A stretch of DNA of 64,000 bases from Candidatus Yonathbacteria bacterium RIFCSPLOWO2_01_FULL_43_27. GTDB taxonomy: Bacteria > Patescibacteriota > Minisyncoccia > Phycocordibacterales > UBA1550. Shown in pieces: positions 2,139-58,320 of the stretch. Location of the stretch: assembly GCA_001823545.1 (NCBI GenBank), contig MHUV01000003.1, positions 6,718 to 70,717 on the forward strand. Direction: 5' to 3'. Under the pieces are notes generated by a model. It was not told where the DNA came from and ran no database searches. It saw only the letters and a list, made by a program, of their open reading frames with translations. Within the stretch, counting starts at the first letter, position 1. Each line of letters begins with the position of its first letter. Both the position numbers and the translations under genes were made by a program.

Positions 2139-2699
2139 ATGAATAAAAAGGTTCTCTGGATTATAGTGCTTGTTTTGCTGGTGTTGGGTGGTGAAAAAGT
2201 AATAAAAGTAGACAACGAAGAGGTTCTTTCTATTCCATCGCCTCGCATTTTTCAAGAAGAAGCACATGAACCGCTAATTCAAAAGACCTTATCTACTGTT
2301 CTTCGTGTTATTGATGGCGATACTATCGAGGTGAGCCGTAATGGCATATCTGAAAAAGTACGGTTAATTGGTGTAAATACTCCAGAAACAGTTGATCCGC
2401 GCAAGAAGGTGGAGTGTTTTGGTAAAGAAGCGTCACGATTTGTAACGGACATCCTTACCGGAACATCGGTGTCTCTTGAAGCAGACGTGAGTCAGGGTGA
2501 ACGTGATCGCTATGGACGCTTACTTCGATATGTCTATCTTCCAAATGGCACACTACTCAACAAAACAATTATTGCTGAAGGATACGGGTATGAATATACC
2601 TATCGTGTTCCCTATCGTTATATGAATGAGTTCAAGGAAGCTCAGTCTTCTGCTAAAAAATTACAAAAGGGACTTTGGGCGGATGGTGTTTGTGAGTAA
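2139..2699 (+). CDS. nuc: Secreted thermonuclease (staphylococcal nuclease / SNase family)
   Basis: Signal/TM N-terminus MNKKVLWIIVLVLLVLGG. SNase core LRVIDGDTIEV...VRLIGVNTPE...GRLLRYVY...KGLWADG. Divergent from the DEDDh exonuclease gene with a ~39-bp gap. Confidence 0.8.
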   Translation: MNKKVLWIIVLVLLVLGGEKVIKVDNEEVLSIPSPRIFQEEAHEPLIQKTLSTVLRVIDGDTIEVSRNGISEKVRLIGVNTPETVDPRKKVECFGKEASRFVTDILTGTSVSLEADVSQGERDRYGRLLRYVYLPNGTLLNKTIIAEGYGYEYTYRVPYRYMNEFKEAQSSAKKLQKGLWADGVCE

Positions 2700-2775
2700 G
2701 CTGGCTTTAGTTATTTCTTATTAGCGACGTAGAGCAAGTGAAGTGAGAAAGTAGTCTTTCTCACTTCCGAGCCGA
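2700..2775. repeat. Partial copy (3'-terminal ~70 nt, inverted) of the intergenic repeat family
   Basis: ttagcgacgtagagcaagtgaagtgagaaagtagtctttctcacttccgagccgaggaagctaatacgg matches 58150-58220 and the reverse complement of 29045-29115. Contains the hairpin GAAAGTAGTCTTTC region. Confidence 0.55.
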
Positions 2776-2807
2776 GGAAGCTAATACGGATTTCGTGTAT
2801 GTAAAAA

Positions 2808-5021
2808 TCATACGGTTACGAGATCTTTTTCGACACGCTTTAATGACACGGCATTTACCGCAACTATTATTGAAGACACACTCATCAAAAGTGCCGCAAA
2901 TTCTGGACGGAGCATAATGCCAAAGCTAGGATATAGAATTCCTCCAGCAATAGGAATTGCAAGGACATTGTAAATTGAAGCCCAAAAAAGATTCTGTTTC
3001 ATTTTGCGAACTGTTGCTTTGCTTAAGGTGATTGCTCGAAGAATGTCTAATGGGTCTGATTTCATAAGAACAACTTTTGCAGTTTCGATTGCCACGTCCG
3101 TGCCTGCACCAATAGCAATACCCACATCAGATTGAGCGAGCGCGGGTGCGTCGTTGACCCCATCGCCCACCATTGCCGTAAATTTTCCTTCTTCTTGTAA
3201 TTTTTTTACGTAGCTCGCTTTATCCGCAGGTATTACTTCCGCAAACACTCTTTCTATACCAATACGACTTGCCACATTCTCTGCGGTATTTTTATTGTCG
3301 CCGGTAATCATAGCAATCTCAATACCCAAAGCTTTCAAACTCTCAACGGTTTTTATGGCATTGGGTTTTATTGGATCAACTACACCAATCACTGCTTTAA
3401 TGGACCCATCAACAGCGAGAATCATAATCGTCTCCCCTTTTTCCAGAAACTCATTTATTTTTTGTTCCAGTATACCCAGAGCAATACCCTGTTCCTTCAT
3501 AAGTCTCACGGTACCGATAAGTAGTTGTTTTCCGTCGACAACGGCCTTTACTCCCAACCCTGAAAGATTTTTAAATTTATCAACCGACTCTGGCAATATA
3601 AGGTCGCGTTTCTTAAGCTCATCGAGCACGGCACCAGCCAAAGGGTGAGATGATTTCGCCTCTGCCGCGCCGACGAGGCGAAGTGCTTCGTCTGCACTAA
3701 AACCATCCACGGTAGCGATGTCAGTTACTTTTGATTTTCCTTCGGTAAGTGTCCCAGTTTTATCAAGGACAATTGCTTGGATTTTTGAAACTTGTTCTAG
3801 TGTGGGAGCATCTTTTATAAGAATATTATGTTTTGCCCCAAGGCCAGTACCGACAGCTACGGCAGTCGGCGTGGCAAGTCCAAGTGCGTCGGGGCAAGCA
3901 ATGACAACCGTAGCAATAGCAAAAGAGAGAGCCAAAAGGAGCGGTGAACCAACTATAAAATACCAAATTATAAATACCAAAAGACCTGATCCTACCGCCA
4001 CAATGACCAAGTACTTTGCAAACCTATCGGCGATTCTTTGTCCCGGAGCTTTTGAATTCTGCGCTTCTTCAACCATCGTTACAATTCGTGCAAGAGCAGT
4101 GTCCTTGCCGATTTTTGTTGCCTTAAATTTCACCGATCCGGTAGTGTTGATTGATCCCCCAATGACCTGGTCCCCAATCCTTTTAGCCGTAGGGATCGAT
4201 TCTCCAGTAACCAAAGATTCGTCTATGGCAGTTTCTCCCTCAATAACCTCACCATCAACAGGAACCTTGTCTCCTGGCTTAAGAATGATGATGTCACCAA
4301 GTTGTATATCGGATGTGGAAACCATCATCTCTCTGCCATCTTTAAAGATTCTGGCTTGAGGCGGTACGAGATTAAAAAGTGCCTGAAGAGCGTCTGTTGT
4401 CCCGCGACGAGATCTCATTTCCATCCAGTGACCGAACAAGACGAACGTGATAAGCATGGCAGCCGCTTCGTAATAGGAATCGGTACTTCCCATAAGAGTA
4501 AGCAGGATACTGAAGCCATACGCTGCAGTAATGCCGACGGCAATGAGTACCGCCATATTCAGTATTTTATTTTTCAACGCAAAATAAGTTGAATAGAGGA
4601 AAATCCATCCGGAATAAAAAAATACCGGTGTTGTTAACATAAAGAGGAGCCACGGTAAAGGAATTGGAGATGCCAGATCAATCCTTAAAAACTCGGTGCC
4701 TAAAGGCGAATACAAAATTATAGGAATGGTGAGGATAAGCGAGAAGAAGAATTTATTCCGAATATCTATCTCCATGAGGCGAGCCATTTCCCGACCTGCA
4801 AGTCCGGTATGATCCATGCCCATCGTCATCGACATACTCATCTTGAACTTTCCCCAGAATCCCATCTTCGATATATCGCCCATTGCGTGCCCAGAATGGG
4901 CACTATGCTTTTCCTGATCATCTTTCTTAACAAGCTTCATCCCACATTTCGGGCACGTGCCGAGTTTGCCCGAAACAACCTCAGGATGCATTGGGCAGGT
5001 ATACATTTTGTTTTCTTTCAT
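2808..5021 (-). CDS. copA: Copper-translocating P1B-type ATPase
   Basis: DKTGTLT phosphorylation motif, GDGVNDAPAL, TGES-like actuator, membrane CP(D)-ALGLATP motif (IACPDALGLATP). N-terminal metal-binding region YTCPMHPEV...CPKCGM followed by a His/Met-rich linker. Confidence 0.9.
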   Translation of the reverse strand: MKENKMYTCPMHPEVVSGKLGTCPKCGMKLVKKDDQEKHSAHSGHAMGDISKMGFWGKFKMSMSMTMGMDHTGLAGREMARLMEIDIRNKFFFSLILTIPIILYSPLGTEFLRIDLASPIPLPWLLFMLTTPVFFYSGWIFLYSTYFALKNKILNMAVLIAVGITAAYGFSILLTLMGSTDSYYEAAAMLITFVLFGHWMEMRSRRGTTDALQALFNLVPPQARIFKDGREMMVSTSDIQLGDIIILKPGDKVPVDGEVIEGETAIDESLVTGESIPTAKRIGDQVIGGSINTTGSVKFKATKIGKDTALARIVTMVEEAQNSKAPGQRIADRFAKYLVIVAVGSGLLVFIIWYFIVGSPLLLALSFAIATVVIACPDALGLATPTAVAVGTGLGAKHNILIKDAPTLEQVSKIQAIVLDKTGTLTEGKSKVTDIATVDGFSADEALRLVGAAEAKSSHPLAGAVLDELKKRDLILPESVDKFKNLSGLGVKAVVDGKQLLIGTVRLMKEQGIALGILEQKINEFLEKGETIMILAVDGSIKAVIGVVDPIKPNAIKTVESLKALGIEIAMITGDNKNTAENVASRIGIERVFAEVIPADKASYVKKLQEEGKFTAMVGDGVNDAPALAQSDVGIAIGAGTDVAIETAKVVLMKSDPLDILRAITLSKATVRKMKQNLFWASIYNVLAIPIAGGILYPSFGIMLRPEFAALLMSVSSIIVAVNAVSLKRVEKDLVTV

Positions 5022-5043
5022 TGAGTGAATAGTACCTGTGGTC

Positions 5044-5283
5044 TTATGAAGTTAAGTCTTTTTTCTTTTCTTCGAACTCTTTCTTATCAATTTCACCTTT
5101 CGCATAACGTTCCTTAAGAATATCGAGTGCTGACTTAGATCTTGGAGTGTCGGAATGGTTGCCACCCCTTGCCTCTCTTGCTAACCATACAATAAAGAAG
5201 ATAACTGCGCCCCAAAAAATTATCATCATCAAACCTCCTCCGAAACCCCAGCCAAAAATGTCTCCATAGTAATTTCCCATCAT
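5044..5283 (-). CDS. SHOCT-domain small membrane protein
   Basis: One TM (LMMIIFWGAVIFFIVWLA) followed by ALDILKERYAKGEIDKKEFEEKKKDL, which matches the SHOCT short C-terminal domain. Adjacent to copA. Confidence 0.65.
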   Translation of the reverse strand: MMGNYYGDIFGWGFGGGLMMIIFWGAVIFFIVWLAREARGGNHSDTPRSKSALDILKERYAKGEIDKKEFEEKKKDLTS

Positions 5284-5423
5284 ATATTTTTTTGTGATTA
5301 ATTAATAATTAATACAAATCCATGAACTCTTTAATAGCTTCTAGATTAATTGTTACATCGACCTTTATCTATACATACTCTATACCTCCGTACCCTTTAT
5401 GTCTACTCTATGTAGCGAGTATT

Positions 5424-6404
5424 CTAGATTCCACACCCACCTTGTTGTCGTGGGGGCGCAACTGTCGCTCCATTTCCTACTCCACAACCATTTCCGCTTC
5501 TTTGTTGTGGGGGTCGAGAGACCTGGGTGGCAATTTTTGCGTATCCTTGTGCACTTGAATAATTTATGCCAAGCATTTCTTGCGGATTCACATCCTTCCA
5601 TTCGATACCCTTGCTCTTCATGTAGGATGCTATCGTGAGATAGGTATCAGGGAACCAATATGAATTGACAACCAGAGCCGCTTTCCACATATCTTGCTCG
5701 CTCGCGCCTTGTGAGGCCATAAGTTCAAGAAACCCGAGCATAGCCATTCCGTGATTGCAGTCAGGGAAGTGAGTAGAATTACCACAGCATGGTCTATATA
5801 TGCCTCTTGATACTTTGTCTACGAGGTCCTGCTGTTCGGAGGTCAGATCAAAGAATTTATGACGGCTATAATGATCCATTGCGCTACCTTGAGCGATAGT
5901 CCACCCACCCGTTGATGCAAAGTTTCCCGCACCGCCGTAGGATGGATCTGTCATCTCTCCTGATTCCAATATTGGATTTTTACTTGCGAGCCCAAGTGCC
6001 CAAAACAAATTGAGCATATACCCAGCATTTTCGTTTGTGATCGTAAGTTTTCCCTCGTTTTGACCAAGAAGGAGTTTCCTGTATTCCTCGGTAAAAGCTC
6101 CTCGCTGATCATATATGGCTATAAACTTATCAGCATCAATGGTTCCGGTACTAACAAGTTTTGATCCAAGATCACCCCAAATAACCGGAAGCTCAACGCC
6201 ACCCGAGGGTAGAACCGCTTCTTCGGCAGCCGAAACTTGTTTTGCGCTTGGTGTTTGTAGTGAACTATTCCCCGCGTTGTAGATCATCTCTCCTGCGATT
6301 ACGAATCCTGCAATAATAATGGCGGTTGGGAGCGTGTATATACCATCAACCTTTTTCGACGTTTCCTGATCTTGAATTATCTCCTCTTGAATTTCGTTGT
6401 TCAT
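5424..6404 (-). CDS. Membrane-anchored hypothetical protein with conserved Cys/His motif; candidate metal-binding
   Basis: N-terminal TM (LPTAIIIAGFVIAG). Motif RPCCGNSTHFPDCNHGMAML. Gly/Cys-rich C-terminal tail GNGCGVGNGATVAPPRQQGGCGI. No family recognised by eye. Confidence 0.45.
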   Translation of the reverse strand: MNNEIQEEIIQDQETSKKVDGIYTLPTAIIIAGFVIAGEMIYNAGNSSLQTPSAKQVSAAEEAVLPSGGVELPVIWGDLGSKLVSTGTIDADKFIAIYDQRGAFTEEYRKLLLGQNEGKLTITNENAGYMLNLFWALGLASKNPILESGEMTDPSYGGAGNFASTGGWTIAQGSAMDHYSRHKFFDLTSEQQDLVDKVSRGIYRPCCGNSTHFPDCNHGMAMLGFLELMASQGASEQDMWKAALVVNSYWFPDTYLTIASYMKSKGIEWKDVNPQEMLGINYSSAQGYAKIATQVSRPPQQRSGNGCGVGNGATVAPPRQQGGCGI

Positions 6405-6414
6405 TGTTTTGTTT

Positions 6415-7986
6415 TTATGGAGTTACATTAATATCAAGCTCTAATTTCAATGTCGGATTTGTTGCAGAATCAGTTTCTATATAGACGACCTTTTTTGCCG
6501 GACCCGCGCCTTGCGGTCCGTGCGCCGCTGGGTCTACCTCCACTTCGATTATAATTTCTTGTCCCGGTTTGACTATCTCATTTATTTTAGACGCAAGCCC
6601 GCCGTGCCCCGGCATACCAAACGGACCCTTACGAGATGTGCCATTTATAATGGTTGCTTCTGTACACATACAAGAAGTGGTAACACTGGCGATCTCTACC
6701 GAAGAACTACCAGTATTTTTTATCTTGAACGAATGACTAACTTTTCCGTTTTTCATCGAAACCGTGCCGAAATCAAAAGATTTCTCTGACGAAACAAGCT
6801 CGCTATAGTTGCCTTTGCCTGAAATTTCTGCATCTCTATACCACACACTAATCCCGTTTGGCATCTTACCCACGTTTATTTTCGCAACTTCTTTCTCCAT
6901 AGCAGTATCAATTATTGACACATCATCACTCTTGAGATTAGTAATGTACGCAAACTTCCCATTTTTAGAAACAGTAACTCCGTGAGGAGCAGACCCACTT
7001 TTGATAGCCTGTACTACGCTCATCTCCTTCAAATCAATCTTATAGATAGTATCGCCAATTGGCTGATCAAAATAGAACCCTTGATCGGCAACATACACAA
7101 AGCGTGAGTCAGGGGTAGGATAAAGCTGTACCGGTCCTTTTGCATCTTGTGGTAAATCAACGTAGCTCAATTTTGCCAAGGCAGTATCGTATACCGCTAA
7201 ACTTTTCGCGTCATACACTGAAGCTAGTGCATACTTCCCGTCTGGCGTGACACCTGTCTGCACTGCCGCACCATTGAGTGAAATGTCTTTTAAGTTGAAA
7301 CTATCGATATCAAGAACTCCCATACTTTTGCCCGACAACATCGCGATATATGCGGTTTTTCCATCTGGTGAGATACGAAGCCCATGAGGTCCACCACCTT
7401 TTTTTGTAGTAACTTCTTTCTCTACCTCAAACGAAGTAGTGTTTATTTTGTATATAATTCCCTTTTCTTGTGATGCGACAATGGCGTACCTGCTGTCGGG
7501 TGTTAAAGAAATATGCGAGAGGTGAAGTTCCTGCCCAATTTCAATCCTCTTTATAATTACGTCTGAGAATGGATCTATGACGATGACTTCGTCGTTGTTC
7601 CTTTGCATAGCCATCCCCTCCTCGCCGTGACCTGCGTTTGCTTCAGCTCTTGGTATGATACGAAACGACATTTTCATATTCTTCTCGTCTTCTGCGTTAG
7701 CGGTTACCCATACACTTTTATTATCCGGTGCAACTTGCACATTGTGTGGCATATAACTAACCGTTATGCCATCTGTATCCTTGGATAAATTTATTTTCTT
7801 TAAAACCTGTTTTGTCTGCGGATTGAGTACAGCGATTTCTCCGGAACCCTCAATTGCAACATATACTTTTTCTTCTACACGTAAGGAACTATTAATTTTG
7901 TTTTCCTGCTTGCCACTTCCGTAATTAATAATTACTCCAATTATCACGATCGCCACCAATACAATTATAATTTTAATATTTTTCAT
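6415..7986 (-). CDS. YVTN-type beta-propeller repeat protein fused to a C-terminal DUF1573-like domain
   Basis: N-terminal TM/signal. Repeated ~40-aa units with V..P DG/DS + ..Y(V/I)(A/T)N spacing typical of YVTN/lactonase-like propellers. C-terminus SFDFGTVSMKNGKVSHSFKIKNTGSSSVEIASVTTSCMCT matches the DUF1573 SC.CT signature. Confidence 0.6.
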   Translation of the reverse strand: MKNIKIIIVLVAIVIIGVIINYGSGKQENKINSSLRVEEKVYVAIEGSGEIAVLNPQTKQVLKKINLSKDTDGITVSYMPHNVQVAPDNKSVWVTANAEDEKNMKMSFRIIPRAEANAGHGEEGMAMQRNNDEVIVIDPFSDVIIKRIEIGQELHLSHISLTPDSRYAIVASQEKGIIYKINTTSFEVEKEVTTKKGGGPHGLRISPDGKTAYIAMLSGKSMGVLDIDSFNLKDISLNGAAVQTGVTPDGKYALASVYDAKSLAVYDTALAKLSYVDLPQDAKGPVQLYPTPDSRFVYVADQGFYFDQPIGDTIYKIDLKEMSVVQAIKSGSAPHGVTVSKNGKFAYITNLKSDDVSIIDTAMEKEVAKINVGKMPNGISVWYRDAEISGKGNYSELVSSEKSFDFGTVSMKNGKVSHSFKIKNTGSSSVEIASVTTSCMCTEATIINGTSRKGPFGMPGHGGLASKINEIVKPGQEIIIEVEVDPAAHGPQGAGPAKKVVYIETDSATNPTLKLELDINVTP

Positions 7987-8009
7987 TTTTTTATAGTTAA
8001 TCTGCTCAT

Positions 8010-8100
8010 AAAAGCGGTAGGTACCACAGGGTAAGCCACCCTTGTATTATTCCATTACATGGACGGTACACCTTGTCGCTCATAGTAAAAAAGCTCACTA
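8010..8100. repeat. Short member of the intergenic repeat family
   Basis: Begins aaaagcggta (the 5' terminus shared with 28841 and the rc of 58320). 8039..8073 is 35/35 identical to 28923..28957. Ends tgtcgctcatag (compare ctacgtcgctaatag). Confidence 0.55.
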
Positions 8101-8157
8101 AAAGTGGCTTATGCAGACAAAAGAAGCGTGTCGAGGTGCGACAGAGTTTCTTTTGTC

Positions 8158-8565
8158 TTAATTAAAAGATGGACTATTTATAAAAAGTGACAACCAGCGA
8201 GTAATAGCCTGTGGTCTGAATAATTTTGTACTATAATTACGGGACAAATAACGTAGTGATATACGTATATGAGATATCGACGGAAAATATTTTTGAAGCA
8301 CATATAGTACCCCTATCGTGAGTAATATTGTCATCAGTACCTGCGCGACAAATGAAGAAACAAGAACATTGGTGAATGTTTGGTACATGAAAAGAACGTG
8401 AGTGGCGGTAGATAGTGTTCCCGTTGGGCACGTAGAAGTATGGAGAGGCGTCGTAGGACAATTGTCACTCGTCATCCCGTCCATATGGTGTTCCATCGAA
8501 GAAAAGCTAAGAATTGCTCCCGCTATAAAGCCTATAAGTACTATAAATACGAGAAATTTCTTCAT
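8158..8565 (-). CDS. Small His/Met/Cys-rich membrane protein; candidate metal (Cu) binding
   Basis: Signal/TM MKKFLVFIVLIGFIAGAILS, then SMEHHMDGMTSDNCPTTPLHTSTCPTG, then a second TM. The C-terminal ~35 aa may be read-through. Confidence 0.4.
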   Translation of the reverse strand: MKKFLVFIVLIGFIAGAILSFSSMEHHMDGMTSDNCPTTPLHTSTCPTGTLSTATHVLFMYQTFTNVLVSSFVAQVLMTILLTIGVLYVLQKYFPSISHIRISLRYLSRNYSTKLFRPQAITRWLSLFINSPSFN

Positions 8566-8615
8566 ATTTCTATTCTATCACTTTCTTTTTAAAAAGTGCA
8601 AGAGTGCATCAACAC

Positions 8616-9791
8616 TTACATTATTTGATCAATAATTTTTGTTTTTAAATTTTCCACTTTTCTCGTCTTTATCCGTTTAATAAACGGATACTCAACATAG
8701 CGATATGTGAGAGAAGAAACAGATATTGTTATAACCCCGCTAAACAGTATGAGAGACCAAAATACTGTTGGTGAAATTGATGTTATCGGATAAAAATAAT
8801 CTATAGAATTTAGTATCGCAAAAAGCATGATGCTGTGAATCAGGTACACACTGTAACTTATAGTTCCTAGAAACTTTGCCACCTCTGTCTTTAATAAACC
8901 AAAAAGATCAGCACCATATACAAAAGATAAGAATACTCCAAGTGAAATAAAGTATTGGGTAAAAGAATAAGGTTTGTAGCTGATAAAATATATGAGAACC
9001 ACTCCTAAGATGGGCACCAGTGATGATATCGACTTTTGGAAAAATTTAATTTCTGGATATTTTTTATATATATGAGCAGCCATGATGCCGAATAAAAATA
9101 TAGCCCAATATCCTCTGAGTGGAGAGGAGAGAGCAAAGAAGGCTAACGGCAGTGCCATGATGAACATCTTCTTGCCTTTAAGAGAAACCGCAAGAATAGG
9201 AAGCATAAGATAAAACACCCATTCAAAAGCCAACGTCCAATGAATACCTGCGTTTATGGGAAGAACACTTATATTGTTAACAGAGGTAGTGGTAATAAGT
9301 CCGAGAGAAAGGAAGGAGAGGATACCTTTTACTGTTTCTCTGATATCTATATCTAACCCTGATTGTATGAAAATTGAAAAAATAATTATTCCCGCGGTAA
9401 AAAGATACATCGGAGCGAGACGCAAAAACCTACTTCGGTATAAAGCTCCTGCATCTATGTCTCCTTTTTGCGCAATAGCTTTTGACCAATATAGGAAACT
9501 TGTAAGAATAAAAAACAAAATAACGGCTTCCCCACCTAAGTGTCTATAAAATCTGATAGGAACAATTTCCCAAACACCACTCTGAAAATAAAAATGACTT
9601 GTCACCGCATGCTGAAAAAATACATTTATTGCTAAAAAACCTCGGAGGCCATCAAGGGACTCAAATCTGCCTCGCTCCTCCTCCTTTATAATCTTTCTGT
9701 AAAATGGAAAATTTCTTACCAATAAAATACTAAATCCCACAAGGATCCCTAAAATCAAAAAATATATCCATATCGTAGTAAAATCAAGCAT
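8616..9791 (-). CDS. Acyltransferase family 3 (OafA/YrhL-like) integral membrane protein
   Basis: ESLDGLRGFLAINVFFQH motif characteristic of acyltransferase_3. About 10 predicted TM segments. Confidence 0.8.
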   Translation of the reverse strand: MLDFTTIWIYFLILGILVGFSILLVRNFPFYRKIIKEEERGRFESLDGLRGFLAINVFFQHAVTSHFYFQSGVWEIVPIRFYRHLGGEAVILFFILTSFLYWSKAIAQKGDIDAGALYRSRFLRLAPMYLFTAGIIIFSIFIQSGLDIDIRETVKGILSFLSLGLITTTSVNNISVLPINAGIHWTLAFEWVFYLMLPILAVSLKGKKMFIMALPLAFFALSSPLRGYWAIFLFGIMAAHIYKKYPEIKFFQKSISSLVPILGVVLIYFISYKPYSFTQYFISLGVFLSFVYGADLFGLLKTEVAKFLGTISYSVYLIHSIMLFAILNSIDYFYPITSISPTVFWSLILFSGVITISVSSLTYRYVEYPFIKRIKTRKVENLKTKIIDQIM

Positions 9792-9879
9792 CTAGGAATG
9801 TTGGTATCTTTTCAAGAAATATATTATAACAAATAAACACCGAATTGTATCGATGATTATTTGTTTAAATGCTGATTTA

Positions 9880-10377
9880 GTTGAGATACGGTGAAGTCTC
9901 GGTCAAGCGCTCGCTCGTCGCCTTATTTGCGGTAAATGAATCGGTCACAGATATTTTGTTCGCCCCTCGGTGAAGTCTCGGCCAAGAACATTTTTCCTCG
10001 TCGTCACTCGAAAAATTTCTCGGCCCTGCTCGGATGACCCATTCTACTGAATGGGTGCCCATCCTCGCTTTCGATTCCTTCACCTACCACGCAAACAATC
10101 GTCGCTCAATGCTCTGCATTGTTCTCCTTGTTTGCGGTAAATGAATCGGTCACAGATATTTTGTTCGTCGTCACTCATAAGATTCCGCGGTCACAGGTAT
10201 TTTTCTGCTGAAAAATCCCGCGACCCCTCCTCGCGCCGTCGCGCTCCGGCCTTGCGAAAGCTCCAAGTATTCGCTTTCTCACCCGGCTCGTGGTCTCGCG
10301 TGTTCGCTCGACAACACTCCGCCCTTCGATTCCTTCACCGTCGTAAAGCGTTGCTTTACGATACCCCTCGTTCACTG
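9880..10377. repeat. GC-rich repeat-rich non-coding island downstream of tRNA-Trp
   Basis: Exact 37-nt direct repeat tttgcggtaaatgaatcggtcacagatattttgttcg at 9926..9962 and 10131..10167. cggtgaagtctcgg at 9889 and 9968. cgtcgtcactc at 10000 and 10166. Inverted copies of the tRNA-Trp 3' end (ttcgattccttcacc) at 10069..10084 and 10325..10340. Hairpin cgtaaagc-gtt-gctttacg at 10342..10360. Confidence 0.6.
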
Positions 10378-10448
10378 CGGGCGGTGAAGGAATCGAACCC
10401 TCGACATCGGTTTTGGAGACCGAAGTTATACCATTTAACTAACCGCCC
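10378..10448 (-). tRNA. trnW: tRNA-Trp (anticodon CCA)
   Basis: Reverse complement GGGCGGT-TA-GTTA-AATGGTA-TAAC-T-TCGGT-CTCCAAA-ACCGA-TGTC-GAGGG-TTCGATT-CCTTC-ACCGCCC-G gives a full cloverleaf of 71 nt. CCA is not encoded. Confidence 0.85.
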
Positions 10449-27660: not shown

Positions 27661-28833
27661 ATGCCACACCATCCCGCAAAAAAAACAATGCTCCTTCTTG
27701 TGTATCTTGCAAGTTTTCTTTATTCGTTCCACTACGCACTCCCCCTCTATATCGAATCGTCATTCATTGCCCAGTTTCTTTCCACAGAAGAAATGATTGG
27801 CGTTATTTTTTCTATTGCCGCAATCATTTCTGTGGTAAGTATTTTTTTCTTTCCGAGAGTTCTTCGAAAATTTGGAAATTATCGTACCACGCTTGCAATT
27901 ATGGGGCTGGAAATTGCAACCCTTCTTTCGCTGGTGGCATTTTCAATACCGCTTGTTGTGGTGGGTCTCTTTATAGTACACCAAGCACTCCTTAGTCTTA
28001 TATTTTTAAACCTCGATACTTTTGTAGAGTCATACTCAGACAACCAGTCAACAGGAAGCATCCGTGGTGTTTTTATGACGGTTCTCAATATCGCGATAGC
28101 GATTGCGCCATTCCTTGCGGGACTTATGCTTACGGACCACGATTTCTGGAAAGTCTATCTCGCGGGAGCAATATTTATGTCCCTTTGCTTTCTGGTGATT
28201 GCGAAAAATTTTAAACACTACATTGACCCACAATACCTCGTGCCAAAGTTTAAAGATACAATAAAAACGGTGCTGAAAAGCCACGACCTTCATTCTGTCA
28301 TCTTTCTTCATTTCCTGCTCGCCTTCTTTTTTTCATGGATGGTAATTTATACACCTATCTATCTCAATAAGCACATTGGCATACCTATGAGTGATATCTT
28401 GAGCGTCATCATTCCTGTAGCACTCCTTCCCTTCATCTTTTTTGAAGCAATATTAGGCAGAATTGCGGACACGAAACTGGGAGAAAAGGAAATCGTTACT
28501 ATGGGGTTCCTTTTGATGGCAGTTGCCACCATGGGACTTTCGTGGATCACCTCAACCAGTGTTGTAGTATGGGCAGTTGCACTCCTTATTACCCGCATTG
28601 GCGCGAGCGCTGTAGAGTCTATGATTGAGAGTTATTTTTATAAAAAAGTAGGCCCCGAAGAAATCAATCTCGTAACCTTTATGCGTATGGTACGCGGAAG
28701 CGCTTATATTGTCGGACCACTTCTTGGCTCGCTCGTACTTTCGTTCATCAATTTCCGCTTCCTCTTTTTTACGCTTGGAATTATCGTTCTTACCAGTATC
28801 CCCTACACGCTCACGATCAAGGATACTAAATAA
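27661..28833 (+). CDS. MFS transporter
   Basis: 12 predicted TM helices in a 6+6 arrangement. Confidence 0.8.
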   Translation: MPHHPAKKTMLLLVYLASFLYSFHYALPLYIESSFIAQFLSTEEMIGVIFSIAAIISVVSIFFFPRVLRKFGNYRTTLAIMGLEIATLLSLVAFSIPLVVVGLFIVHQALLSLIFLNLDTFVESYSDNQSTGSIRGVFMTVLNIAIAIAPFLAGLMLTDHDFWKVYLAGAIFMSLCFLVIAKNFKHYIDPQYLVPKFKDTIKTVLKSHDLHSVIFLHFLLAFFFSWMVIYTPIYLNKHIGIPMSDILSVIIPVALLPFIFFEAILGRIADTKLGEKEIVTMGFLLMAVATMGLSWITSTSVVVWAVALLITRIGASAVESMIESYFYKKVGPEEINLVTFMRMVRGSAYIVGPLLGSLVLSFINFRFLFFTLGIIVLTSIPYTLTIKDTK

Positions 28834-28840
28834 AAGCGGT

Positions 28841-29115
28841 ATTTACCCCGAGGCAAAGCCCCGGTCAAAATGTGTTCGCTTCGCTCACCAATTTACCGCC
28901 CCAGAGGGGCAGGGTATTCAACCCTTGTATTATTCCATTACATGGACGGTACACCTTTTGGATTTTCTTTTCGTGATTACACGCAATAAAATCTCAAAAG
29001 GTCTTGCGAAGCTCCATGTATTCGCTTCTCACCTCGGCTCCCTGGCCGACTGCTGTCAGCGGGTTAGGCGGAAATGAGAAAGATTACTTTCTCATTTCAC
29101 TCGCTCTACGTCGCT
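28841..29115. repeat. Full-length (long variant) copy of the intergenic GC-hairpin repeat family
   Basis: Termini aaaagcggtatttacc ... ctctacgtcgctaatag. Hairpins CCGGGGC-ttt-GCCCCGG (as its complement here), CCGCCCC-aga-GGGGC(A/G)GG and GAAATGAGAAAG-attac-TTTCTCATTTC. Versus 58150-58320 (inverted) it carries a ~130-bp internal insertion that includes the 35-mer shared with 8039. Confidence 0.65.
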
Positions 29116-29120
29116 AATAG

Positions 29121-51766: not shown

Positions 51767-51791
51767 GCAATAATTATACTAGATAAAAAAA

Positions 51792-51898
51792 TAAATAGAA
51801 GCGGTATTTATCCTGTGGCAGGTCCCCGAACAAAAAAGATTACATTCTTTTGTCTTTGCCAACGACGCAAATTTACTAATTCGTCTACGTCGCTCATA
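51792..51898. repeat. Probable divergent member of the intergenic repeat family
   Basis: Starts agaagcggtatttatcc (compare aaaagcggtatttacc) and ends ctacgtcgctcataac (compare ctacgtcgctaatag). The internal sequence is unrelated. Confidence 0.4.
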
Positions 51899-58149: not shown

Positions 58150-58320
58150 TTTATTAGCGACGTAGAGCGAGTGAAATGAGAAAGTAATCTTTCTTATTTC
58201 CGAGCCGAGAAGCCAATACAAGGGTATAATACCCCGCCCCTCTGGGGCGGTAAATGTGTGAGAAGCGAATACATTTTGACCGGGGCTTTGCCCCGGGGTA
58301 AATACCGCTTTTATCTATAC
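58150..58320. repeat. Short-variant copy (inverted relative to 28841) of the intergenic GC-hairpin repeat family
   Basis: ttagcgacgtagagcgagtgaaatgagaaagtaatctttcttatttc...ccgcccctctggggcgg...gaccggggctttgccccgg...taccgctttt. Confidence 0.65.

Follow-up and report, generated by a model that had tools for sequence, protein, structure and literature searches.

Organization of the cluster

Inspection of open reading frames and their translations places five consecutive genes on the minus strand within positions 2808-8565 of the window (the whole stretch of DNA analyzed, 64,000 nucleotides), as an earlier note on this DNA had reported. They encode proteins of 737, 79, 326, 523 and 135 residues, and the motifs quoted in that note for genes 1, 3, 4 and 5 were each found in the translations. 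The host is a tiny bacterium from groundwater. The features are:

2718-2776, no strand: repeat module D, a hairpin with a perfect 12-bp stem where the nuclease and ATPase genes converge (repeat comparison, folding)
2808-5021, minus: gene 1, P1B-type heavy-metal ATPase, 737 aa (TIGR01511, E1-E2_ATPase and HAD)
3888-3896, minus: codons of the TM6 CPD motif, residues 376-378, at the canonical CPC/CPH metal-selectivity position (ATPase alignment)
4923-5003, minus: N-terminal HMBD metal-binding motif YTCPMHPE...CPKCGM, residues 7-33, then a His/Met-rich stretch (PF19335, 43.5 bits)
5044-5283, minus: gene 2, small protein of 79 aa that crosses the membrane once and has its SHOCT domain on the cytoplasmic side (PF09851, 37 bits)
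5424-6404, minus: gene 3, membrane-anchored extracytoplasmic protein, 326 aa (homologue family, AF2 model)
5427-5516, minus: C-terminal arm of gene 3, Gly-rich and disordered, carrying the fourth of the conserved Cys residues (pLDDT and alignment)
5613-5843, minus: residues 188-264 of gene 3, predicted to form a CcmH-like subdomain of three helices in which the Cys/His loop joins helices 1 and 2
5739-5795, minus: invariant gene 3 motif R204-P-C206-C207-x-N209...D215-C216-N217-H218-G219 (62-sequence alignment)
6415-7986, minus: gene 4, membrane-anchored seven-bladed YVTN propeller plus DUF1573 Ig-like domain, 523 aa (PF21783, PF07610)
6418-6798, minus: gene 4 DUF1573 domain, residues 397-523, with TSCMCT, KGPFGMPGH and DPxAHGPxG (PF07610)
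6661-6675, minus: TSCMCT of the DUF1573 domain
6838-7872, minus: gene 4 propeller domain, residues 39-383, with invariant H81, H155, H158, H201 and H335
7609-7680, minus: disordered Met/His-rich insert in the propeller, NMKMSFRIIPRAEANAGHGEEGMAMQRN (pLDDT)
8008-8074, no strand: repeat fragment in the gene 5/gene 4 spacer, in which the start of module A runs into module C (repeat comparison)
8158-8565, minus: gene 5, two-TM membrane protein, 135 aa (homologues in related loci)
8167-8199, minus: conserved cytoplasmic tail of gene 5, RWLSLFxNSPS
8386-8496, minus: outward Cys/His loop of gene 5 (H26, N35, C36, C46)

The earlier claim that two copies of an intergenic repeat flank the cluster did not hold up. 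The stretches at 2718-2776 and 8008-8074 are different modules with no sequence in common; the second falls within the cluster itself, whose limits the repeats do not mark. The first is the last hairpin module (D) alone of a modular intergenic repeat with fuller copies at 28827-29119 and 58152-58318; it is 92% identical to 58151-58209, inverted relative to 29069-29119, folds at -27.1 kcal/mol (z = -3.7) and is probably a 3'-end stem-loop. The second is 94% identical to 28910-28957. The 171-nt spacer between genes 5 and 4 folds with z = -2.7, and the gene 5 stop is followed by a separate strong hairpin distinct from the repeat stretch.

An unusual copper-type pump and four companions

Profile searches with the gene 1 product gave 584.8 bits against the NCBIfam model TIGR01511 (cut-off 397) and detected the E1-E2_ATPase and HAD domains, and TGES, DKTGT, GDGVNDAP, YN(x)4P and MSVSS are all legible in its translation. 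The earlier description of a CopA-type P1B ATPase thus stands for the family and for the N-terminal metal site, but not for a canonical CopA, since TM6 carries CPD rather than CPC. Among the partner ATPases of the related loci fetched for comparison, alignment finds CPC in the large majority, CPH in 15 and CPD in 9 (eight fetched loci plus gene 1 itself); these form three Cu-type classes, all related to gene 1. We class gene 1 as a predicted Cu-type P1B pump with an unusual CPD motif. The public model of this gene, at 727 aa, has its start inside the HMBD motif. For gene 2, the PF09851 match bears out its description as a SHOCT-domain membrane protein, and a homologue is found in 24 of 80 related loci.

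Gene 3 matches no Pfam or NCBIfam family even at E<=5 and nothing in a PDB sequence search, and structure comparison of its AF2 model (pLDDT 86.9) returned no overall PDB match. It nevertheless belongs to a large family, with more than 6194 homologues, 597 clusters at 50% identity and relatives in at least 589 species genomes, the best 80 being nearly all from Patescibacteria. Both its Cys/His motif, RPCCGNSTHFPDCNHGMAM, and its Gly/Cys tail are read in the translation as previously described. Across 62 sequences of 31-54% identity, the columns R204, C206, C207, N209, D215, C216, N217 and H218 are invariant; most of these diverse members have exactly four cysteines, and the conserved set comprises one His and four near-invariant Cys, three of them strictly invariant. 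C307, in the C-terminal arm, is an invariant column of the MAFFT alignment, inspection of the tails shows a Cys among the last 1-5 residues in nearly all 62 members, and the arm is doubled in the window's protein (GCGV...GGCGI), where residues 311-326 have pLDDT below 50. This tail resembles the sulfur-carrying arms of SoxY and DsrC. Fusion partners within the family include a CPxC membrane protein, CxxC membrane domains, rhodanese and DsbC_N.

The reading of gene 4 as a YVTN propeller fused to a DUF1573-like SC.CT domain agrees with Pfam matches to the YNCE propeller PF21783 (71.1 bits) and to PF07610 (52.5 bits), and fusions of this type occur in more than 100 Patescibacteria protein clusters. 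The AF2 model has a pLDDT of 84.9. The five invariant His are predicted to line the hub, with Q243, Q287 and N377 in the other blades, and the two known propellers with hub copper centres, those of NosZ and thiocyanate dehydrogenase, are structurally close to that of gene 4. Residues 103-126, the Met/His-rich insert, have pLDDT below 50, and H120 within it is nearly invariant. TSCMCT is present in 62/62 DUF1573 ORFs of related loci, and some family members are selenoproteins in which UGC (U, selenocysteine) takes the place of the Cys motif, with selenocysteine at its first Cys, which marks the CxC as a reactive site.

Gene 5, whose MEHHMDGM...NCPTTPLHTSTCP motif is confirmed, also lacks a Pfam or NCBIfam match at E<=5 and represents a new family of predicted two-helix Cys/His membrane proteins. 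Of the families proposed earlier for genes 3-5, DUF1573 and the propeller were matched, both in gene 4, and PCYCGC, CopC, PCuAC and CusF were not; no match placed genes 3-5 in an established non-metal family. The earlier term "periplasmic" is right in locating these proteins outside the cytoplasm, as expected from their N-terminal anchors, but "extracytoplasmic, membrane-anchored" is preferable because the host belongs to the Patescibacteria and probably has only one membrane.

A conserved neighbourhood in relatives

Conservation of the neighbourhood in relatives, the decisive check and one that the earlier note had proposed, is clear and strong. Of 80 species-level loci with a gene 3 relative, 60 have a P1B ATPase, as do 33 of the 35 whose flanks extend 6 kb or more in each direction; the pump invariably shares the strand of gene 3, and the median gap is 2.4 kb. 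All 393 of 393 neighbour matches in the 80 loci are co-directional with gene 3, and the order g5-DUF1573-...-g3 is fixed. The usual companions are, besides the ATPase, a gene 5 homologue (66/80, immediately upstream of the DUF1573 gene), DUF1573 (55/80), a CsoR/RicR-type repressor (40/80), the DsbD/CcdA-like membrane protein p259 (55/80), HMA-DsbD_2, in which CopZ-like HMA domains are fused to DsbD_2 (35/80), and a CupA-like chaperone. Every one of the 39 cupredoxin ORFs has C...CxMxM, the motif of CupA, a Cu(I) chaperone whose sites are taken from PMC5646241. A CPxC membrane protein, p151, is found in related operons and is fused to gene 3 in some.

The window's cluster differs from these operons. 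Its propeller gene is found in 0/80 of the gene 3 operons sampled, and it has no CsoR, neither of the DsbD-like proteins and no CupA-like chaperone, so that neither copper regulation nor a source of reductant is evident in the window. Elsewhere, a lone gene-4-type propeller (locus L093) precedes a SHOCT-CopA-HMA_DsbD2-CupA-like-multicopper oxidase-CsoR array, with the gene 2 homologue between propeller and CopA, and another locus (L090) has the gene-5/gene-4/gene-3 triad with no ATPase within 7 kb.

A candidate module for extracytoplasmic copper handling

We favor the view that the cluster handles copper outside the cytoplasm by means of thiols and works together with copper efflux, to which we assign a probability of about 45%; it is best explained as a pared-down form, with a propeller, of a copper operon widespread in Patescibacteria. 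The earlier proposal of an accessory metal-resistance or trafficking module is thereby supported, by the conserved neighbourhood and the copper-specific companions, with metal binding putative. Genes 3-5 adjoin copper pumps in related species by the hundred and are therefore probable new components of the way bacteria handle copper, and the copper reading is supported by companions that are independently copper-specific (CsoR/RicR, the CopZ-like HMA, the CupA-motif cupredoxin). Counting against it are the absence from the window of a CsoR repressor, DsbD-like proteins and a CupA-like chaperone, the triad in L090, the putative nature of the metal sites and the sequence-based substrate assignment of the CPD-type pump.

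The analysis establishes the genes and their motifs, how they are conserved and grouped, the predicted folds, and the outward orientation expected from the N-terminal anchors; that the ligand is copper, which protein passes it to which, and any redox step are what we infer from this arrangement. Gene 1, with its CPD motif, cytoplasmic HMBD and Met/His-rich N-terminus, would pump Cu(I) from the cytoplasm, and genes 3, 4 and 5, in the same membrane with their working parts outside, would hold the exported copper at thiolate/imidazole sites, barring it from re-entering the cell and from oxidizing surface proteins. Gene 5 may contribute the outward H...NC...C loop on its two-helix protein and its conserved cytoplasmic tail; gene 4, the DUF1573 CxC, the propeller hub and the floppy Met/His loop; and gene 3, the vicinal Cys206-Cys207, Cys216 and His218 on the CcmH-like loop, served by the Cys of the flexible Gly-rich arm. 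Convergence of the gene 3 Cys/His residues, or of the gene 4 hub His, into a metal site is putative. In the commoner operon form, p259, HMA-DsbD_2 and p151 would keep the thiols reduced and CsoR would turn the operon on at high copper.

Genes 3-5 might instead be mainly thiol-disulfide oxidoreductases that mend or protect the copper-misoxidised cysteines of surface proteins, an unlikely explanation that is still the strongest of the alternatives. In Salmonella, ScsB/ScsC/ScsD are induced by Cu, and Scs proteins not only bind Cu(I) but also act as oxidoreductases (PMC10907172), a dual nature that fits; the one solved structure like gene 3, CcmH, is a thiol oxidoreductase, one or two DsbD/CcdA-like proteins occur in most related operons, DsbC_N is fused to one gene 3 family member, and selenocysteine, as in some DUF1573 proteins, is typical of redox proteins. 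However, the cluster has no thioredoxin-fold protein, and with no DsbD-like electron importer in the window, a catalytic reductase would lack an evident electron source. Moreover, the vicinal CC, third Cys, His and swinging-arm Cys resemble a metal or cargo site more than a CXXC pair, and envelope repair gives the propeller no role.

Less probable is a reading in which gene 4 encodes a copper enzyme of its own, akin to NosZ and thiocyanate dehydrogenase and holding a His-bound centre at its hub, with the ATPase and genes 5 and 3 supplying copper and perhaps, via the Cys arm, sulfur; the cluster would then be a biogenesis pathway for gene 4 or neighbouring cuproproteins and not a resistance module. 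The gene 4 segments 'KRIEIGQELHLSHISLT' and 'PHGLR' align with NosZ segments 'KRIHDNGDLHHVHMSFT' and 'IHGLR', which probably carry the CuZ ligands His79/80 and His128 of 1fwx. Consistent with such a role are an L-NosZ-like gene (300 + 65 bits to NF052460) between gene-5 and gene-4 homologues beside an HMBD ATPase (L091), an unfused cupredoxin whose CuA motif is perfect, encoded after a long gene-3 fusion (L087), the likeness of the gene 3 tail to sulfur-carrying arms and the rhodanese fused to one family member. Yet L091 is a single, frameshift-ridden contig, gene 4 scores 74 bits against NF052460 (cut-off 700), the propeller is missing from the sampled gene 3 loci, and a CsoR-type repressor stands first in those operons, pointing to induction by excess copper. 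To our knowledge, Patescibacteria generally have no respiratory chains to feed such an enzyme.

It is improbable that the metal is another thiophilic one (Hg, Ag, Cd or Zn), with the CPD Asp altering pump selectivity and the Cys pairs acting like those of Mer proteins. CPD is unlike every characterised selectivity motif, MerA has vicinal Cys pairs and C-terminal Cys arms, and the HMA-DsbD_2 partner weakly matches MerTP and MerP, but gene 1 retains the Cu-type TM7/TM8 signatures YN(x)4P and MxxSS and exceeds the Cu-subfamily cut-off, no mer genes are present, and CPC/CPH pumps, the CsoR/RicR-type repressor, the CupA-type chaperone and a multicopper oxidase share the same accessory genes. That genes 3-5 are unrelated surface proteins beside a pump by accident, for which one could cite L090 and the contextual basis of their functional assignment, is already contradicted by the conservation statistics: the ATPase frequency in fully flanked loci against the ~2-3% we would estimate for a gene present once in a genome of ~1 Mb, the co-directional neighbours, the fixed order and the fusions linking components.

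Comparison with known systems

Among solved structures, gene 3 has a single counterpart in CcmH / NrfF / CycL (PF03918), of cytochrome c maturation. Gene 3 differs in having a vicinal CC, a third Cys and a His in place of CXXC, an extra 130-residue N-terminal domain of unassigned fold and the Cys-bearing arm; HMMER-level similarity is absent, and the loci examined contain no c-type cytochrome maturation genes. NosZ, including the clade III lactonase-type L-NosZ, and thiocyanate dehydrogenase are, like gene 4, seven-bladed propellers, with His-bound hub copper centres, whereas gene 4 has His at just ~3-4 of the seven CuZ positions and ends in DUF1573 with CxC rather than a CuA cupredoxin.

Like the cluster, the Scs system (the DsbD-like ScsB, ScsC and ScsD; PMC10907172) comprises copper-linked envelope proteins with reactive cysteines, and it shares DsbD-like membrane electron transporters with the cluster's canonical relatives, in which Cu(I) binding and disulfide exchange may likewise combine. 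In contrast to Scs, the Cys proteins here are CcmH-like helical, Ig-like DUF1573 and two-TM proteins with no thioredoxin fold, are linked in cis to an efflux ATPase and belong to hosts that are probably single-membrane bacteria.

Gram-positive cop operons (CsoR/CopY - CopZ/CupA - CopA, sometimes with extracellular Cu-binding lipoproteins such as CopL/YdhK) have the same core, a Cu-type P1B ATPase, and share with the cluster's commoner relatives the CsoR/RicR-type repressor, the CopZ-like HMA and a membrane-anchored C...CxMxM cupredoxin. The window, by contrast, has no repressor or chaperones, its pump has CPD and HMBD rather than CPC and HMA, and the cop operons described so far contain nothing equivalent to genes 3, 4 and 5. 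CPD itself has been recorded as a novel P1B-3 subtype (PMC5552934). The Rhizobiales P1B-3-like ATPases of that study, catalogued with their function uncharacterised, have in common with gene 1 the TM6 CPD, YN(x)4P, an MSxSS-type TM8 and few N-terminal histidines; gene 1 adds the HMBD, a Met-rich N-terminus and dedicated accessory genes.

A conserved gene neighborhood around a copper-type ATPase

Translation of the region places five consecutive minus-strand genes exactly where the earlier note had put them, and all of the motifs that it quoted can be read in the products of genes 1-5:

2808-5021, minus strand: gene 1, P1B ATPase, ORF of 737 aa
5044-5283, minus strand: gene 2, SHOCT-domain protein, ORF of 79 aa
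5424-6404, minus strand: gene 3, ORF of 326 aa
6415-7986, minus strand: gene 4, propeller-DUF1573 protein, ORF of 523 aa
8158-8565, minus strand: gene 5, ORF of 135 aa

The encoded proteins are identical to those of a Parcubacteria population from Rifle groundwater that carries two deposited names, Candidatus Azambacteria GW2011_GWA1_44_9 and several Candidatus Yonathbacteria bins. Identity across both names spans 2139-9791 of the window, flanking nuclease and acyltransferase genes included. Because these flanking housekeeping genes are equally identical, horizontal transfer between “Azambacteria” and “Yonathbacteria” was ruled out in favor of one organism under two names, and a single population thus appears to have been classified into two candidate phyla.

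The family of gene 3 is very large, with more than 6194 homologs at E≤0.001 (the best 120 being 64-100% identical to gene 3), 597 clusters at 50% identity and relatives in at least 589 species-representative genomes. The best 80 gene 3 loci, almost all of them from Patescibacteria, were searched with the proteins of the window and with neighbors taken from the first loci fetched.

Neighbors of gene 3 in its best 80 loci, many of which lie on short contigs
P1B ATPase: 60 of 80
DUF1573 protein: 55 of 80
p259 (259-aa membrane protein): 55 of 80
CsoR-type repressor: 40 of 80
HMA-DsbD_2: 35 of 80
Cupredoxin: 31 of 80
SHOCT protein: 23 of 80
p151 (150-aa CPxC membrane protein): 20 of 80

All 393 neighbor matches run in the same direction as gene 3, and the ATPase is present at a median distance of 2.4 kb in 33 of the 35 loci (94%) that have at least 6 kb on both sides. 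The earlier note would have given up its proposal if the neighborhood were not conserved across relatives; clearly, it is conserved. An iterative search of the locus ORFs additionally recovered the gene 5 family in 66 of the 80 loci, always directly upstream of the DUF1573 gene. The usual order is CsoR - ATPase - (SHOCT) - gene 5 - DUF1573 - p259 - (p151) - gene 3 - HMA-DsbD_2 - cupredoxin. In the window the arrangement is shorter: a propeller precedes the DUF1573 domain in one fused protein, and CsoR, p259, p151, HMA-DsbD_2 or any other HMA or DsbD-like protein, and the cupredoxin are encoded nowhere in its 64 kb. This short variant recurs in three Yonathbacteria-type loci (L003, L004 and L089). 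At a further locus (L090:6298-9287), a triad of gene-5-like, propeller-DUF1573 and gene 3 genes sits among housekeeping genes with a metal ATPase absent within 7 kb, so the triad can stand apart from the pump.

A Cu-type pump of the CPD subtype

Profile searches find HMBD, E1-E2_ATPase and HAD domains in gene 1, and its translation contains TGES, DKTGT, TGDN and GDGxNDxP, making it a P1B heavy-metal P-type ATPase. It scores 601.6 bits against TIGR01525 (cut-off 346) and 584.8 bits against the copper subfamily model TIGR01511 (cut-off 397). Its TM7 and TM8 segments carry, as CopA does, the motifs YN(x)4P (ASIYNVLAIP) and MxxSS (LLMSVSS); YN(x)4P and MSVSS are TM7/TM8 marks of Cu pumps. TM6, however, has CPD at residues 376-378 instead of the Cys-Pro-Cys of CopA, and the N-terminus consists of an HMBD domain (PF19335, CPMHPE...CPKCGM) and then a His/Met-rich stretch in place of CopA's HMA domain with its CxxC. 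The CopA equivalog model NF007952 gives 572.6 against a cut-off of 1316. Nor does the protein have the CPH motif and His-rich N-terminus of CopB (P1B-3), given its CPD and a Met-rich N-terminus with few His. Gene 1 is therefore a Cu-type P1B ATPase that nevertheless fails two defining features of CopA. It is closest to the uncharacterized CPD subtype of PMC5552934, which has few N-terminal His and was catalogued, without characterization, in Rhizobiales. The public model of the ATPase gene (727 aa) omits the first 10 codons of the ORF, so that it begins within the CPMHPE motif (window 4992-5021); the 737-aa reading restores the complete HMBD domain.

The product of gene 2 crosses the membrane once and has a cytoplasmic SHOCT domain (PF09851, residues 52-77; 37 bits against a cut-off of 27); homologs of it are found with the ATPase in about one third of the loci.

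The partners of gene 3 in other genomes also point to copper. Among the fetched loci, the large majority of partner pumps have CPC in TM6, 15 have CPH and nine have CPD (eight loci plus the window); CPC and CPH are signatures of Cu-ATPases. The copper sensor RicR/CsoR is the closest match of the operon repressor, and DsbD_2 carries a fused HMA domain of CopZ-like type. All 39 cupredoxin ORFs contain C...CxMxM, the motif of the two Cu(I) sites in the pneumococcal chaperone CupA (C74, C111, M113 and M115; PMC5646241). The membrane helices of p259 contain HPCS and CxFPC motifs, and it gives weak matches to DsbD and TsoB, consistent with a CcdA/DsbD-type electron transporter. At another locus (L093:2183-9247), a complete cop operon opens with a gene-4-type propeller that has no DUF1573; after it come SHOCT - HMA-CopA - HMA-DsbD_2 - CupA-like cupredoxin - multicopper oxidase - CsoR.

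Gene 3 contains a probable CcmH-like module

Neither gene 3 nor gene 5 has a Pfam or NCBIfam match, even at E≤5. The families that the earlier note suggested for genes 3-5 did not materialize: PCYCGC/CYCXC (PF13798) matches neither gene 3 at this threshold nor any of 62 members of its family, and there are no Pfam or NCBIfam matches to CopC, PCuAC, CusF or CopZ in genes 3-5. A PDB sequence search with the gene 3 profile returned only a chance-level match, and Foldseek found nothing significant in the PDB for the gene 3 model (best E 0.8).

The alignment of the 62 members (31-54% identity) is invariant at W135, R204, C206, C207, N209, D215, C216, N217, H218, G219 and C307, and most members have exactly four cysteines. 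In the AF2 model, which is confident (pLDDT 86.9, pTM 0.80), an anchor helix (24-44) at the N-terminus precedes an ectodomain that is mostly helical, and the Gly-rich tail is disordered. That tail contains the fourth conserved Cys, which in nearly all members falls among the final 1-5 residues (endings such as ...GGGCGV and ...GGSCGA are typical); the tail is duplicated in the protein of the window.

As in CcmH, whose reactive loop lies between helices 1 and 2, the model has a three-helix bundle with a loop at that place. The match is in sequence register: helix 189-201, a 16-residue loop and helices 217-231 and 236-250 correspond to CcmH helix 1, the LRCxxC loop, and helices 2 and 3, and within the loop R-C-P-K-C-Q-N...D-S-N of CcmH aligns with R-P-C-C-G-N...D-C-N of gene 3. 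Profile-profile comparison (hhalign, 121 CcmH sequences) returns the same alignment, but at only P=0.0036, and Pfam CcmH (PF03918) finds no match among the 62 members at E≤10. The LRCxxC redox motif itself is replaced by YRPCCGN, which keeps the Arg and the second Cys, whereas the first Cys is shifted to give a vicinal pair. Because the alignment is the same but its P value weak and a Pfam match lacking, we speak of a CcmH-like module, probably a remote homolog and not a member of the CcmH family, on the basis of fold similarity and weak profile signals. Natural fusions of the gene 3 domain, to p151 (CPIC...NCC), to membrane domains with TGCTVCG or AGCPSCG, to rhodanese and to DsbC_N, point the same way.

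As encoded at L001:7517-7972, p151 is a membrane protein of about 150 aa without family assignment, with CPIC in its first helix and ...KMKNCC at its extreme C-terminus; its fusion to the gene 3 domain is seen in protein P0128. A distant gene 3 relative of 497 aa, with a fused N-terminal membrane domain bearing CxxC, is found at L087:5097-9913. Its neighbors are CsoR, a protein of 173 aa rich in Met and His, an ATPase that lacks an HMA domain, and a membrane-anchored cupredoxin that stands alone and has the full CuA motif H...CxxxCxxxHxxM.

Genes 4 and 5

Gene 5 has two TM helices, an outward loop with invariant H26, N35, C36 and C46, and a basic cytoplasmic tail ending RWLSLFxNSPS. This architecture is constant in its family: TM, H...C...C, HH, TM, and a tail with ...WL(S/A)Lx(E)NSP(S/T).

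Profile matches divide gene 4 into a YNCE/YVTN propeller, whose models score above cut-off, and a DUF1573 domain. In its model (pLDDT 84.9), an anchor helix is followed by a propeller of seven blades (39-383), YVTN/YncE-like in type and with a disordered, Met/His-rich insert at 103-126, and by an Ig-like DUF1573 domain. In 43 homologs, H81, H155, H158, H201 and H335 are invariant and H120 is nearly so. The invariant His stand at the start of the innermost blade strands, where other blades have Q243, Q287 and N377.

A weak alignment with Paracoccus denitrificans NosZ pairs ELHLSH of gene 4 with DLHHVH, and PHGLR with IHGLR, segments that in NosZ (1fwx) carry CuZ ligands. On this mapping, H155, H201, H335 and possibly H81 would presumably be equivalent to ligands and L156, Q287 and N377 would replace the others, such that about three to four of the seven CuZ positions would be His in gene 4. 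The full set of seven His is thus missing, the C-terminal domain is DUF1573 instead of a CuA cupredoxin (CxxxCxxxHxxM), and the L-NosZ model NF052460 gives 74 bits against a cut-off of 700. With few CuZ His, no CuA domain and so low a score, gene 4 is therefore not a nitrous-oxide reductase, and fold similarity and weak profile signals suggest a more distant relationship to NosZ.

The DUF1573 assignment is clear (PF07610, 52.5 bits against a cut-off of 26.1), and TSCMCT is invariant in all 62 related DUF1573 ORFs. Selenoprotein members of DUF1573 have U-G-C at that Cys site (PMC9312934, PMC13188914), which marks the CxC site as chemically active. The propeller-DUF1573 fusion occurs in more than 100 protein clusters. 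Full-text literature searches found no paper on the function of DUF1573, and none connecting such a cluster with DUF1573 or with CsoR in Patescibacteria.

Intergenic repeats

Two copies of an intergenic repeat had been thought to flank the cluster. These stretches have no sequence in common, and one of them, the second, is internal; both are parts of one modular repeat with further copies in the window:

2718-2776: terminal hairpin module only
8008-8074: different portion of the same repeat, between genes 5 and 4
28827-29119 and 58152-58318: fuller copies
51791-51848: further copy

The repeat family is built of four hairpin-forming modules (A to D) and lies directly after stop codons; copies differ in their subset of modules, occur in both orientations and match no Rfam family. 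Since the two stretches hold different modules and one is internal, a role as mobile-element boundaries of the cluster was ruled out. Both repeat-bearing spacers fold into stable stem-loops (z = -3.7 and -2.7) that probably act at the RNA level without delimiting the module. No CsoR operator was recognized by eye in the cluster spacers, and a promoter and terminator scan of 2600-9900 gave counts at chance level. Elsewhere, a GC-richer non-coding stretch of about 500 nt (9877-10376), downstream of tRNA-Trp (10377-10448, minus strand), contains two pairs of direct repeats (9918-9962 with 10123-10167, 96% identity; 9992-10023 with 10159-10190) and has no Rfam match even at E≤1.

Discussion

Our preferred interpretation, held tentatively at a probability of about 0.45, is that the cluster encodes an extracytoplasmic, thiol-based copper-handling module coupled to efflux. 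The conservation, co-direction, fusions, motifs and folds of these genes are observed; copper as the ligand, the order of transfer and any redox step are inferred. According to this proposal, the ATPase would expel Cu(I), which would then be bound and handed on outside the membrane by gene 5, the DUF1573 CxC, the hub and loop of the propeller, and gene 3, whose CC/C/H site would work with a swinging Cys arm. The full operon adds DsbD-like proteins, which would maintain the thiols in reduced form, and CsoR, through which it would be induced. There are analogies for the parts assigned to gene 3: vicinal cysteines bind Cu(I) in Cox17, and C-terminal Cys arms ferry cargo in MerA, SoxY and DsrC.

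The same reactive cysteines might instead serve an Scs-like repair of copper-damaged thiols. We think this unlikely, although it is the strongest of the alternatives: the window lacks both the DsbD-like electron importer and the thioredoxin-fold partners of an Scs-type system, DsbD-like proteins being confined to the canonical relatives and a thioredoxin fold being seen nowhere.

Less likely again is a cuproprotein assembly line with gene 4 as the enzyme. In its favor, one single Patescibacteria-like contig, full of frameshifts, has a lactonase-type NosZ-like gene (L091:5382-6973; propeller 300 bits and CuA domain 65 bits to NF052460) between a gene 5 homolog and a 66%-identical gene 4 homolog, beside an HMBD ATPase and a YHS protein, and at L087 the long gene 3 fusion is followed by the cupredoxin with its perfect CuA motif. 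However, the propeller is found in none of the best 80 gene 3 loci, most of which are headed by a copper-sensing repressor. In its most developed form, which strikes us as a long shot, gene 4 would be an as yet unrecognized extracytoplasmic copper enzyme derived from a propeller of the NosZ/thiocyanate-dehydrogenase type. A dedicated line would build its hub center: the CPD ATPase would supply the copper, with gene 5 and gene 3 as the other members. Gene 3 would then be a CcmH-derived carrier of copper, and possibly sulfur, on a SoxY/DsrC-like C-terminal Cys arm, and the same gene 3 and gene 5 machinery would serve neighboring L-NosZ-like and CuA proteins in some Patescibacteria. If this were true, organisms thought to lack respiration-type copper enzymes would make and use them.

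That the module handles a different thiophilic metal seems quite improbable, and no mer, czc or ars genes were seen. Chance adjacency can be dismissed almost entirely in the face of the shared direction and recurrence of the neighbors.

Little is known of the fate of copper after its export from a Gram-positive-type cell. Three families without a described function, those of gene 3 and gene 5 and the long-orphaned DUF1573, are here linked to such pumps across at least 589 genomes at species level. The interest of the cluster rests on the size and conservation of the gene 3 family, which has thousands of members and no Pfam model, on a first functional context for DUF1573, and on the possible link to a NosZ-type copper propeller. 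The conserved Cys and His residues form a defined set. A CcmH-like module would be working outside cytochrome maturation, and the CPD-type P1B ATPase now has natural partners. Patescibacteria genomes are tiny, yet a copper operon of up to ten genes has been kept in them, which implies strong selection. Should the propeller prove to be a copper enzyme, or the module to mature neighboring L-NosZ-like or CuA proteins, the cluster would be relevant to the accessory genes still missing for clade III nitrous-oxide reductases.

Among known systems, the cluster most resembles a cop operon of Gram-positive bacteria to which envelope proteins with reactive cysteines, comparable to the Scs set, have been added. 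A copper-homeostasis operon is thus of a known kind; what is new are the accessory families of genes 3-5 and the unusual CPD pump that they accompany.
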